Assembly: GCF_003334385.1 (NCBI RefSeq)
Contig: NZ_QOWN01000007.1
Origin: Escherichia coli
Lineage (GTDB): Bacteria > Pseudomonadota > Gammaproteobacteria > Enterobacterales > Enterobacteriaceae
Length of the DNA: 64,000 nucleotides
Direction: 5' to 3' (one strand)
Position 1 is the first letter of the stretch. Every line of letters begins with the position of its first letter. The translations under genes were made by a program, and so were the position numbers. This document shows positions 42,069 through 45,386 of the stretch, piece by piece. The notes beneath the pieces are model-generated. The model was not told the DNA's origin, did no database searches, and saw nothing but the letters and a program-made list of their open reading frames with translations.

Positions 42069-45000
42069 ATGAGCAAACAATCACAGCATGTATTAATTGC
42101 CCTGCCCCACCCGCTGCTTCACCTGGTCAGTTTAGGTTTAGTCTCGTTTATCTTTACCCTTTTCTCGCTTGAGCTTTCGCAGTTTGGCACCCAACTCGCC
42201 CCACTGTGGTTCCCGACGTCCATCATGATGGTGGCGTTTTATCGCCATGCCGGGCGCATGTGGCCGGGAATTGCGCTGAGCTGTTCGCTGGGAAATATCG
42301 CCGCATCCATCCTGCTTTTTTCCACCAGCTCGCTGAACATGACCTGGACGACCATCAATATTGTTGAAGCCGTGGTCGGGGCAGTGCTGCTACGTAAATT
42401 GCTGCCGTGGTATAACCCCTTGCAAAATCTGGCTGACTGGCTGCGTCTGGCACTCGGCAGCGCCATTGTTCCGCCTCTGTTGGGGGGGGTTCTGGTTGTC
42501 CTGCTGACGCCCGGAGACGATCCTCTCAGGGCATTTTTGATATGGGTACTGTCAGAATCCATCGGCGCTCTGGCACTGGTGCCGCTGGGATTGTTATTTA
42601 AACCACACTATCTGCTGCGCCATCGCAACCCACGGTTGCTTTTTGAGTCGCTGCTCACGTTAGCCATCACACTGACGTTAAGCTGGCTTTCGATGCTGTA
42701 TCTGCCGTGGCCTTTTACTTTCATTATTGTGCTGTTGATGTGGAGCGCCGTGCGTCTGCCACGAATGGAAGCCTTTTTGATCTTCCTTACCACGGTGATG
42801 ATGGTGTCGCTGATGATGGCCGCGGATCCCTCCCTGCTTGCTACGCCGCGTACGTACCTGATGAGCCATATGCCGTGGCTACCGTTTTTGCTGATCCTGC
42901 TGCCCGCCAACATCATGACCATGGTGATGTATGCCTTTCGTGCGGAACGCAAACACATTTCCGAAAGCGAAACCCACTTTCGGAACGCGATGGAATATTC
43001 CGCTATCGGTATGGCGTTAGTGGGCACCGAGGGACAATGGCTGCAAACCAACAAAGCGCTCTGCCAGTTTCTCGGGTACAGTCAGGAAGAGCTGCGCGGA
43101 CTCACCTTTCAGCAACTGACCTGGCCGGAGGATCTCAATAAAGATCTCCAACAGGTTGAAAAGCTGATAAGCGGTGAAATAAACACCTATTCAATGGAAA
43201 AACGCTACTACAACCGCAATGGCGATGTTGTCTGGGCGTTGCTTGCCGTCTCACTGGTGCGCCACACGGATGGCACGCCGCTCTATTTTATCGCTCAGAT
43301 TGAAGACATTAACGAGCTAAAACGCACCGAACAGGTCAATCAGCAACTGATGGAGCGCATCACTCTGGCTAACGAAGCGGGCGGGATTGGCATCTGGGAG
43401 TGGGAGTTGAAGCCGAATATTTTTAGCTGGGATAAGCGGATGTTCGAGCTGTATGAAATTCCTCCACATATCAAACCGAACTGGCAGGTGTGGTACGAGT
43501 GCGTGCTGCCGGAAGATCGCCAGCATGCCGAAAAAGTGATTCGTGATTCGTTGCAATCACGCTCGCCCTTTAAACTGGAATTTCGCATTACCGTAAAAGA
43601 CGGTATTCGCCATATCCGCGCCCTCGCCAACCGGGTACTGAATAAAGAAGGCGAAGTCGAACGTCTCCTCGGCATCAATATGGATATGACCGAAGTGAAA
43701 CAGCTTAACGAGGCATTGTTTCAGGAAAAAGAGCGCCTGCACATTACGCTTGATTCCATCGGTGAAGCCGTGGTCTGTATTGATATGGCGATGAAAATTA
43801 CCTTTATGAATCCAGTGGCGGAGAAGATGAGCGGCTGGACGCAGGAAGAAGCGTTAGGTGTTCCGCTCCTGACGGTGTTGCATATTACTTTTGGCGACAA
43901 CGGACCATTAATGGAGAACATTTACAGTGCCGACACCTCACGTTCCGCGATCGAGCAAGATGTGGTGTTGCACTGTCGGAGCGGCGGCAGTTACGACGTG
44001 CATTACAGTATTACGCCGTTAAGTACTCTGGACGGCAGCAATATTGGTTCGGTTCTGGTGATTCAGGACGTTACCGAATCACGCAAAATGCTGCGCCAGC
44101 TGAGCTACAGCGCCTCCCATGATGCACTGACGCATCTCGCCAACCGCGCCAGTTTTGAGAAACAACTGCGTATCCTGCTGCAAACGGTAAACAGTACACA
44201 TCAGCGACATGCCCTGGTGTTTATCGATCTTGATCGCTTTAAAGCGGTGAATGACAGCGCCGGGCATGCGGCGGGTGACGCTTTGCTGCGCGAACTGGCG
44301 TCGTTAATGCTGAGTATGCTGCGTTCCAGCGACGTGCTGGCGCGACTCGGTGGGGATGAATTTGGTCTGCTGCTACCAGACTGTAATGTTGAAAGCGCGC
44401 GTTTTATCGCTACACGCATTATCAGTGCCGTGAATGACTATCACTTTATATGGGAAGGCCGTGTGCATCGGGTAGGTGCCAGTGCCGGGATTACCTTGAT
44501 TGATGACAACAATCATCAGGCGGCAGAAGTGATGTCGCAGGCTGATATCGCCTGTTATGCCTCCAAAAATGGTGGCCGGGGCCGGGTGACGGTTTACGAA
44601 CCGCAGCAAGCTGCCGCACATAGCGAACGGGCGGCGATGTCGCTTGATGAACAGTGGCGGATGATTAAAGAGAATCAGTTGATGATGCTCGCCCACGGTG
44701 TCGCTTCGCCACGGATCCCGGAAGCGCGTAATTTGTGGCTGATTTCACTTAAGCTCTGGAGTTGCGAAGGCGAGATTATTGATGAACAAACATTTCGTCG
44801 TAGCTTCAGCGATCCGGCACTTAGCCATGCTCTTGACCGACGGGTATTCCACGAATTTTTCCAGCAGGCCGCAAAAGCGGTTGCCAGTAAAGGCATAAGC
44901 ATCGCCCTCCCCCTTTCCGTTGCCGGTTTGAGTAGCGCCACGCTGGTGAATGATCTGCTTGAGCAGCTGGATAATAGCCCTCTACCACCACGGTTATTAC

Positions 45001-45386
45001 ATCTGATTATTCCGGCAGAAGCGATTTTAGATCACGCAGAAAGCGTGCAAAAACTGCGGCTGGCGGGATGTCGGATAGTGCTCAGCCAGGTGGGCCGCGA
45101 TCTGCAAATCTTCAACTCGCTGAAAGCGAATATGGCAGATTACCTGCTACTTGATGGTGAGTTATGCGCCAACGTGCAGGGTAATTTGATGGATGAGATG
45201 CTGATTACGATTATTCAGGGGCACGCTCAGCGACTCGGGGTGAAGACTATAGCCGGGCCAGTCGTTTTACCCTTAGTGATGGATACGCTTTCGGGCATCG
45301 GCGTCGATCTGATTTATGGTGATGTGATTGCCGATGCCCAACCGCTGGATTTGCTGGTGAATAGTAGTTATTTCGCGATTAACTGA
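42069..45386 (+). CDS. dgcE: Large multidomain membrane-anchored c-di-GMP protein (MASE1 - PAS repeats - GGDEF - EAL-like); probable diguanylate cyclase DgcE/YegE
   Basis: 1105 aa; N-terminal about 300 aa hydrophobic (MASE1-like); PAS-like segments; intact GGDEF motif (ARLGGDEFGLLLPD); C-terminal EAL-like region without an obvious canonical EAL motif. Confidence 0.85.
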   Translation: MSKQSQHVLIALPHPLLHLVSLGLVSFIFTLFSLELSQFGTQLAPLWFPTSIMMVAFYRHAGRMWPGIALSCSLGNIAASILLFSTSSLNMTWTTINIVEAVVGAVLLRKLLPWYNPLQNLADWLRLALGSAIVPPLLGGVLVVLLTPGDDPLRAFLIWVLSESIGALALVPLGLLFKPHYLLRHRNPRLLFESLLTLAITLTLSWLSMLYLPWPFTFIIVLLMWSAVRLPRMEAFLIFLTTVMMVSLMMAADPSLLATPRTYLMSHMPWLPFLLILLPANIMTMVMYAFRAERKHISESETHFRNAMEYSAIGMALVGTEGQWLQTNKALCQFLGYSQEELRGLTFQQLTWPEDLNKDLQQVEKLISGEINTYSMEKRYYNRNGDVVWALLAVSLVRHTDGTPLYFIAQIEDINELKRTEQVNQQLMERITLANEAGGIGIWEWELKPNIFSWDKRMFELYEIPPHIKPNWQVWYECVLPEDRQHAEKVIRDSLQSRSPFKLEFRITVKDGIRHIRALANRVLNKEGEVERLLGINMDMTEVKQLNEALFQEKERLHITLDSIGEAVVCIDMAMKITFMNPVAEKMSGWTQEEALGVPLLTVLHITFGDNGPLMENIYSADTSRSAIEQDVVLHCRSGGSYDVHYSITPLSTLDGSNIGSVLVIQDVTESRKMLRQLSYSASHDALTHLANRASFEKQLRILLQTVNSTHQRHALVFIDLDRFKAVNDSAGHAAGDALLRELASLMLSMLRSSDVLARLGGDEFGLLLPDCNVESARFIATRIISAVNDYHFIWEGRVHRVGASAGITLIDDNNHQAAEVMSQADIACYASKNGGRGRVTVYEPQQAAAHSERAAMSLDEQWRMIKENQLMMLAHGVASPRIPEARNLWLISLKLWSCEGEIIDEQTFRRSFSDPALSHALDRRVFHEFFQQAAKAVASKGISIALPLSVAGLSSATLVNDLLEQLDNSPLPPRLLHLIIPAEAILDHAESVQKLRLAGCRIVLSQVGRDLQIFNSLKANMADYLLLDGELCANVQGNLMDEMLITIIQGHAQRLGVKTIAGPVVLPLVMDTLSGIGVDLIYGDVIADAQPLDLLVNSSYFAIN

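Follow-up and report, generated by a model that had tools for sequence, protein, structure and literature searches.

The closest described counterpart of the protein analysed here is DgcE (YegE, b2067) of Escherichia coli K-12. Its C-terminal degenerate EAL domain (EALdeg) lacks catalytic activity and forms dimers, and it inhibits DgcE by opposing oligomer formation (Pfiffer et al. 2019, PMC6510439). Deletion of EALdeg hyper-activates DgcE and increases matrix production; the truncated protein forms larger complexes and is present at higher levels (PMC6510439). Steric interference by EALdeg was offered as a hypothesis by the same authors, who also reported that its c-di-GMP-binding residues are not conserved (PMC6510439). 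Output of DgcE requires the GGDEF motif, and rdcA and rdcB mutations have the same effect on cellular c-di-GMP levels as a dgcE mutation (PMC6510439). The degenerate regulatory EAL domain of DgcE is already known, having been genetically dissected in 2019 (PMC6510439). DgcE is in this sense a textbook GGDEF-EAL protein, with one domain enzymatic and the other turned regulator, and carries little weight as a discovery. What is provided here is a residue-level inventory of the replacements in a register tested with several methods, a correction concerning an 'EAR' tripeptide that is not a motif remnant, and the finding that EALdeg, apparently dead, is still under purifying selection, yet changes several times faster than the remainder of DgcE.

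In FimX and LapD, as in DgcE, a GGDEF domain is followed by a C-terminal EAL domain that is non-catalytic. Their GGDEF domain is degenerate and their EAL domain still binds c-di-GMP, whereas the GGDEF domain of DgcE is predicted to be active. In RflP/YdiV, BluF and CsrD the EAL fold does not bind or cleave c-di-GMP and works by contacting other macromolecules, namely FlhDC, BluR, and RNase E and sRNAs, respectively. All three thus have separate partners. For EALdeg, an action in cis has been reported, on the oligomerisation of DgcE itself (PMC6510439). Against the CsrD model, DgcE scored 57.6 bits (cut-off 663).

The stretch of DNA analysed (the window) comprises 64,000 nucleotides of an E. 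coli genome (contig NZ_QOWN01000007.1). A 1105-aa open reading frame at 42069..45386 (+ strand, ATG start, TGA stop; from the ORF list) had been called DgcE/YegE-like in the first-pass annotation. It is E. coli dgcE (yegE) itself. The annotated dgcE of E. coli C and other strains is 100% identical to it in DNA, the neighbourhood asmA-dcd-udk / dgcE / alkA-yegD (annotated E. coli C region) is conserved, and the NCBIfam equivalog NF007298 matched residues 1-1105 (model 1-1111 of 1111) with 2068.8 bits versus a cut-off of 1135, so that a chance reading frame can be dismissed. A dgcE match was found in 5417 of 5426 complete E. coli genomes. In a distant orthologue (L008), asmA-dcd-udk likewise lies upstream, and alkA is located farther downstream, past an intervening gene cluster. 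The K-12 gene is the same gene, with the same architecture and neighbours; the K-12-type (O16:H48) allele shows 99.6% DNA identity and four residue differences (A946S, D968E, V1058M and D1085E). The four lie in EALdeg, outside the catalytic-equivalent positions; they are allelic, and none is of functional note. RefSeq annotates none of the overlapping reading frames within dgcE in other frames or on the other strand, and they were set aside as by-products of a long GC-balanced gene. A scan of 41700-45600 gave two promoter-like sites, fewer than in shuffled sequences (mean 4.1); terminator-like matches from the same scan, located within dgcE or between udk and dgcE, were rejected as implausible.

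A domain HMM search with Pfam resolved DgcE into MASE1, three PAS domains, GGDEF and EAL, with the GGDEF match full-length and the EAL match partial, in agreement with the N-terminal membrane domain and PAS-like repeats described earlier. MASE1 occupies aa 19-294 (42123..42950, +; PF05231, E 8.6e-36, model 2-298 of 299). In the published work it is needed for activity, is the target of RdcA/RdcB and is where proteolysis begins (PMC6510439). The PAS domains lie at aa 303-416 (42975..43316, +; PAS_9/PAS/PAS_3), aa 452-537 (43422..43679, +; PAS_3, E 1.2e-09) and aa 560-670 (43746..44078, +; PAS_4, E 2.1e-10, plus PAS), and TIGR00229 matched three stretches of the protein.

The GGDEF diguanylate cyclase domain (aa 682-838; 44112..44582, +) matched PF00990 over model positions 1-160 of 161 (E 2.3e-45, 154.7 bits) and also TIGR00254. 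Its active-site motif GGDEF at aa 761-765 (44349..44363, +) is intact, within LGGDEFGLLLPD at aa 760-771 of the translation, and is kept in the distant orthologue L008. Many, but not all, active cyclases carry an RxxD I-site whose last residue lies 6 positions ahead of the first Gly of GGDEF. In DgcE, an intact RSSD is found with this spacing at aa 752-755 (44322..44333, +) and is listed as the I-site of this protein in Table 1 of PMC11327459. The earlier view that cyclase activity is plausible is supported by the motif and by the GGDEF-dependent output on record (PMC6510439). As judged from its residues, the GGDEF domain would make c-di-GMP. DgcE is the 'master' diguanylate cyclase of E. coli, anchored in the membrane, and its c-di-GMP acts upstream of PdeR, leading to expression of CsgD and production of curli and pEtN-cellulose.

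The C-terminal region had been noted for the length and spacing of an EAL domain, and it appears to keep the complete fold. Pfam gave a partial EAL match only (aa 898-1088, model 39-234 of 236, 75 bits); as it begins at model position 39, it starts just past the expected site of the EAL motif. EALdeg is assigned to aa 859-1105 (44643..45383, +). The AF2 model of this region (pLDDT 89.1, pTM 0.86) matched the EAL structures RocR, TBD1265, FimX and LapD in Foldseek with TM 0.74-0.84 over about 250 columns, and hhalign aligned EALdeg to active EAL domains with a probability of 96-97%. A PDB search with the N-terminal 135 residues of the EAL domain alone returned no significant EAL match, because this segment is too diverged for a single-sequence search. 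The AF2 model predicts a complete EAL (β/α) barrel. Active EAL domains (PdeH, PdeL, PdeR, DosP; RocR, TBD1265) have the overall fold in common with DgcE, with TM up to 0.84 (RocR), and also the structural residues L894, W897, F909, G1009 and G1084, whereas the residues for metal, substrate and catalysis are all lost from DgcE.

No E[AVLI]L tripeptide was found in the C-terminal domain by a scan of the translation, as had been noticed before; the only 'EAL' strings in DgcE, at 548 and 594, adjoin or lie within the third PAS domain. The equivalent of E-x-L-x-R is ISLKL at aa 892-896 (44742..44756, +), with E replaced by I892 (or opposite a gap) and R by L896. In a global hhalign alignment, S893-L-K-L896-W897 stands opposite V142-L-V-R145-W146 of PdeL, and E141 of PdeL falls at I892 or at a gap beside it, so that the register is uncertain by about 1 residue. 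The segment lies within AF2 strand 889-897. A plain MAFFT alignment with four active EAL domains instead placed the motif at Q907-T-F909, which requires a 14-residue deletion after it. We rejected this register because G901 and F909 lie past the motif in the Pfam HMM, in the phmmer alignment to FimX (gap-free), in hhalign (both local and global) and in the AF2 secondary structure; with these two residues after the motif, the motif is positioned at 892-896.

The tripeptide 'EAR' (aa 885-887; 44721..44729, +), which the first-pass annotation had proposed, while flagging it as unplaced, as a candidate for the degenerate motif, turned out to be something else. In the global profile-profile alignment by hhalign it stands opposite the hairpin turn Q133-T-G135 of PdeL, and in the AF2 model it is located in loop 881-888 between strands 871-880 and 889-897. 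It is part of the β1-β2 hairpin turn and not the EAL motif. Other E. coli alleles carry E885Q, P884L and R887S around it.

Compared to active PdeH, PdeL, PdeR and DosP, EALdeg is substituted at 12 of 12 positions linked to metal, substrate or catalysis. A Gln of active EAL domains is S880 in DgcE. Downstream of the I892 and L896 replacements, alignments to active EALs and orthologues put P948 (44910..44912, +) in place of the metal-binding Asn. I980-I-P-A983 (45006..45017, +) replaces E-x-x-E, with I980 and A983 for the two Glu, and S1006-Q1007 (45084..45089, +) replaces the DD of the DDFGTG loop. The catalytic Lys is L1027 (45147..45149, +). Both Glu of E-G-V-E are lost in G1063-P-V-V1066 (45255..45266, +; G1063 and V1066), and Y1083 (45315..45317, +) occupies the place of the Gln conserved in the QG motif. 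Pairwise alignments to FimX and RbdA indicated the same losses of DD, K, E and Q. Every catalytic residue is likewise absent from 12 orthologues with 39-80% identity to the EAL domain; in none of them is position 892 a Glu, and position 896 is L or F instead of R. The Salmonella loci L006 and L007 start at contig ends and cover the C-terminal 358 residues only, and the L008 orthologue, frameshifted but complete, was used in place of full-length Salmonella domains. Having neither the metal ligands nor the catalytic Lys or Glu, EALdeg is, as far as its residues tell, catalytically dead.

These replacements bear directly on the idea that some phosphodiesterase activity, weak or conditional, is left in the EAL domain and that DgcE is bifunctional. 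Bifunctional GGDEF-EAL proteins do exist, and on the surface the increased matrix upon deletion of the EAL domain resembles the effect of a lost phosphodiesterase. However, in every orthologue examined all metal ligands and catalytic residues are now non-ionisable or structurally incompatible, and the Pfam EAL match is a partial one of 75 bits. We give this idea practically no credence.

Could EALdeg instead be a catalytically inactive receptor like those of FimX and LapD, feeding back on the cyclase after sensing c-di-GMP from the neighbouring GGDEF domain or from the global pool? Degenerate EAL domains serving as c-di-GMP receptors form an established class. The EAL domains of FimX and LapD, both receptor-type, are the best PDB matches of EALdeg in sequence and fold (E 9.5e-08 for the FimX sequence), and hyper-activation upon deletion would also suit the loss of a negative feedback sensor. 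However, FimX keeps the binding residues Lys (FLKLD), Glu (VAEF) and Gln (VQG), whereas these are gone in EALdeg (L1027, G1063 and Y1083). The Arg of ExLxR is missing here and in all orthologues, the LapD family model gave 76.5 bits (cut-off 1020), and the RSSD I-site is already a dedicated site for product feedback. Considering also that the binding residues were judged not conserved by the authors of the genetic study (PMC6510439), we regard a receptor role as very unlikely.

The hyper-activation of DgcE upon deletion of EALdeg (PMC6510439) identifies the domain as an inhibitory regulatory module rather than a phosphodiesterase, and together with the 12 lost positions it bears out the regulatory role suggested for the C-terminus before. 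Very probably, DgcE is an active GGDEF cyclase with a structurally complete but dead EALdeg acting as a brake. Without metal, catalytic and c-di-GMP-contacting residues, EALdeg should neither hydrolyse nor, presumably, bind c-di-GMP. It would work as an intramolecular brake that self-associates and opposes the formation of higher-order DgcE oligomers, in which GGDEF domains pair productively, possibly through steric interference. Its action would also indirectly leave DgcE more exposed to constitutive N-to-C proteolysis.

A dead domain might also be a functionless relic in neutral drift, and variation among E. coli alleles could be read in this way. In crude pairwise Nei-Gojobori estimates on E. 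coli alleles (the O157:H7 allele L012 was left out because it is frameshifted), dN/dS of EALdeg was 0.21, the highest of the structured domains, compared to 0.00-0.05 in the other domains. Amino-acid changes among alleles were significantly concentrated in EALdeg (binomial p 3e-8 to 4e-3); in one ExPEC-type allele, 18 of 24 fell within it. However, a dN/dS of 0.21 is well under 1, AF2 predicts the fold at high confidence, and deletion of the domain has a strong phenotype (PMC6510439). Moreover, orthologues of 40-65% identity retain the domain at full length, with highly conserved blocks and an invariant C-terminal motif. A mere relic is therefore extremely improbable. Non-synonymous evolution of EALdeg in E. 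coli is 4- to 20-fold faster than that of other domains, which indicates a weaker constraint. EALdeg is under purifying selection, relaxed relative to the other domains of DgcE.

G1063 is invariant in the orthologues, and L894 and S1006 are invariant or nearly so. The most conserved segments of EALdeg are the helix 1039-1056 and the C-terminal 1091-1104, and their conservation is consistent with a protein-protein interface. There is some small chance that EALdeg is a fast-evolving 'tuning knob' of DgcE or, alternatively, that the helix 1039-1056 and the C-terminal SYFAIN bind another partner. If it is a tuning knob, polymorphisms in EALdeg might quantitatively shift the strength of the auto-inhibitory brake, and its allelic changes might add to the natural variation in curli/cellulose matrix between strains.

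The ORF at 42069..45386 (+) of the window starts with ATG, ends with TGA and encodes a product of 1105 aa. In megablast searches, it was 100% identical to at least 10 records, including E. coli C, in which the gene is annotated as 'dgcE: diguanylate cyclase' and has the same flanks as the window ORF (yegH, asmA, dcd and udk on one side; alkA, yegD and yegI on the other). The NCBIfam equivalog NF007298 matched the protein end to end at 2068.8 bits (cut-off 1135). The genome matches, the E. coli C neighbourhood and the NF007298 score show that the protein is DgcE (YegE) itself, beyond the 'DgcE-like' assignment of the first-pass annotation. 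By megablast, dgcE was present in 5,417 of 5,426 complete E. coli genomes, nearly always as a single chromosomal copy. The mechanically called udk ORF (window 41110-41814, -) uses a TTG start and encodes 234 aa; the RefSeq CDS is 642 bases (213 aa), and the 21 additional codons are an artefact of ORF listing.

A Pfam search located MASE1 (aa 19-294), three PAS domains (aa 303-416, 452-537 and 560-670) and a full-length GGDEF domain (aa 682-838, E 2.3e-45), in agreement with the membrane N-terminus, PAS-like repeats and clear GGDEF motif described from the sequence. In the translation, the GGDEF motif lies at aa 761-765, inside LGGDEFGLLLPD, and the RxxD inhibitory site (I-site) is intact as RSSD at aa 752-755; this site is likewise tabulated as RSSD in PMC11327459. 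The Pfam EAL match was partial (aa 898-1088): it covered model positions 39-234 of 236 and so began directly downstream of the expected EAL signature.

Using MAFFT, we aligned aa 850-1105 of DgcE with the EAL domains of PdeH, PdeL, PdeR and DosP, experimentally established phosphodiesterases taken from the annotated E. coli K-12 genome. DgcE matched 7 of the 28 columns invariant across the four proteins, all of them structural (G, L, P, V). The catalytic residues N200, E232, E235, D262, D263, K283, E319, E322 and Q339 of PdeL are replaced with P948, I980, A983, S1006, Q1007, L1027, G1063, V1066 and Y1083, respectively, which bears out the degeneracy of the C-terminal EAL domain (EALdeg, aa 859-1105) suggested in the first-pass annotation. 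MAFFT, local hhalign and global hhalign agreed on the placement of each catalytic position from the Asn on, and the pairwise phmmer alignments with FimX and RbdA concurred for the DD, K, E and Q positions. At the Gln position of the upstream QP motif, DgcE has S880.

The N-terminal part of the EAL domain is strongly diverged and, searched alone against the PDB, gave no EAL match. We rejected the MAFFT register with the motif at Q907-T-F909, which demands a 14-residue gap after it and disagrees with four other lines of evidence. The Pfam HMM begins at S898, opposite model position 39; DgcE 900-933 was aligned gap-free with Xanthomonas FimX by phmmer; and the first residue aligned by local hhalign was F913, facing A163 of PdeL. 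Global hhalign (probability 96-97%) equated S893-L-K-L896-W897 with V142-L-V-R145-W146 of PdeL and F909 with F159, PdeL E141 landing on I892 or the neighbouring gap. In the AlphaFold2 model, helix 859-868 is followed by strand 871-880, loop 881-888 and strand 889-897 (LWLISLKLW), then by a loop, a short strand (903-905) and helix 906-911. This β-hairpin layout is that implied by the alignment, with the motif within the second strand, and points to I-S-L-K-L (892-896) as the remnant of E-x-L-x-R, which would have lost both the Glu that binds metal and the Arg that binds substrate. The tripeptide 'EAR' (885-887), earlier put forward as a candidate motif position, instead faces the Q-T-G turn of PdeL in the alignment and falls within the hairpin loop of the model, 5-7 residues before the motif position; its region varies among E. 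coli alleles (E885Q, P884L, R887S). Residual phosphodiesterase activity of EALdeg is implausible, as the domain is left without any metal ligand.

The AlphaFold2 model of the EAL domain, built from 19 homologues, was confident (mean pLDDT 89.1, pTM 0.86). The top Foldseek matches in the PDB were all EAL domains (FimX, RbdA/PA0861, LapD, Bd1971, RocR and TBD1265), with TM 0.74-0.84 over about 235-255 aligned columns at 11-22% identity. The C-terminal domain is thus predicted to be a complete EAL barrel rather than a fragment. That EALdeg serves as a c-di-GMP receptor of the FimX/LapD type is unlikely: FimX keeps the Lys, Glu and Gln, whereas DgcE has L1027, G1063 and Y1083 there; the Arg of the motif is Leu in DgcE; and the LapD model scored well under its cut-off.

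A search with the C-terminal 256 aa retrieved homologues of 98% to 40% identity, Salmonella, Cronobacter and Leclercia among them. None of 12 divergent orthologues with near-full coverage had regained catalytic EAL residues, and the residue choices were restricted: I, L or V at 892; L or F at 896; P, A or T at 948; S or T at 1006; Q or H at 1007; L, M, I or V at 1027; always G at 1063; Y or F at 1083. Loss of the catalytic residues is therefore old, with the replacing residues conserved in turn. Conservation in the domain was highest in helix 1039-1056 (NLMDEMLITIIQGHAQRL) and the extreme C-terminus (QPLDLLVNSSYFAIN) and lowest at 979-995, the former E-x-x-E site. Pairwise Nei-Gojobori dN/dS among six E. 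coli alleles, a crude estimate from few alleles uncorrected for recombination, was 0.21 for EALdeg, 0.65 for the linker (839-868) and 0.00-0.05 for the MASE1, PAS and GGDEF domains. Amino-acid differences were significantly enriched in EALdeg (binomial p 3e-8 to 4e-3). Identity to a distant syntenic orthologue (L008) gave the same ranking (PAS and GGDEF 69-73%, MASE1 58%, EALdeg 54%, linker 43%). EALdeg is under constraint, though looser than the rest of DgcE. Three observations contradict a neutral relic: the dN/dS far under 1, the conserved blocks and the phenotype of EALdeg deletion (PMC6510439).

Everything essential on EALdeg has already been published. Pfiffer et al. (2019, PLoS Genet 15:e1008059, PMC6510439) showed that DgcE output needs the GGDEF motif, that EALdeg lacks 'essentially all specific residues' for c-di-GMP/metal binding and catalysis, and that its deletion causes matrix overproduction resembling that of ΔpdeR. 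Isolated EALdeg dimerised in a two-hybrid assay, and DgcE without it formed higher-order complexes and reached higher protein levels. They proposed that EALdeg dimerisation would sterically disturb productive DgcE oligomerisation, which is promoted by MASE1, acting with RdcA/RdcB (a GTPase system), and by the PAS3 region. This proposal agrees fully with our table of residues, our fold model and our conservation data, none of which contradicts it; the steric mechanism itself is inferred. Except for the placement of 'EAR', the initial observation was confirmed, and its reading of the C-terminus as regulatory rather than phosphodiesterase is supported by the residue loss together with the published ΔEALdeg phenotype.

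Between the window allele and a K-12-type O16:H48 allele there are 12 nucleotide differences, 11 of them in the EALdeg segment (7 synonymous, 4 non-synonymous) while the PAS and GGDEF domains have none. The pattern resembles a patch introduced by recombination at the dgcE 3' end more than evenly distributed divergence. Among the six E. coli alleles, dS was markedly lower in the MASE1 segment (window 42123-42950), at 0.043, than in the PAS/GGDEF segments (0.12-0.17). A history of mosaic recombination, or added constraint on codons of the 5' mRNA or the membrane domain, may account for this.

Several pathogenic lineages carry a broken dgcE. In E. coli O157:H7 ECP17-46 (NZ_CP040572.1, 1968169-1971487) it is annotated as 'frameshifted'; in strain 35 (NZ_CP172867.1) the match is limited to query bases 1-1124, the feature being a 'MASE1 domain-containing protein'; and a 296-aa C-terminal fragment, 'putative sensor protein [Shigella sonnei]', stands for 747 member sequences. 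At L008 (GCA_051307045.1, CP150452.1), dcd (2017-2599) and the dgcE orthologue (3759-7092) are each split by a frameshift into two overlapping ORF calls; that two genes inside 5 kb are affected suggests indel errors in the assembly, not true pseudogenes.

Elsewhere in the window, Rfam identified two tandem SIB RNA antitoxin genes (52087-52235 and 52422-52564, +; RF00113, 149.5 and 142 bits). Salmonella locus L007 has an intergenic Ibs_toxin ORF (3499-3558 of that locus) downstream of its yegD homologue; SIB RNA/Ibs_toxin are known type I toxin-antitoxin loci. Four tandem naRNA4 copies (16864-17223, +; RF02564, 71.6-79.7 bits), spaced by about 96 bases, make a repetitive extragenic element array. 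Two JUMPstart elements (RF01707; 11477-11515 and 36225-36263) and one algC RNA motif (RF02929; 21613-21662), all on the minus strand, suggest that the upstream part of the window contains polysaccharide gene clusters.
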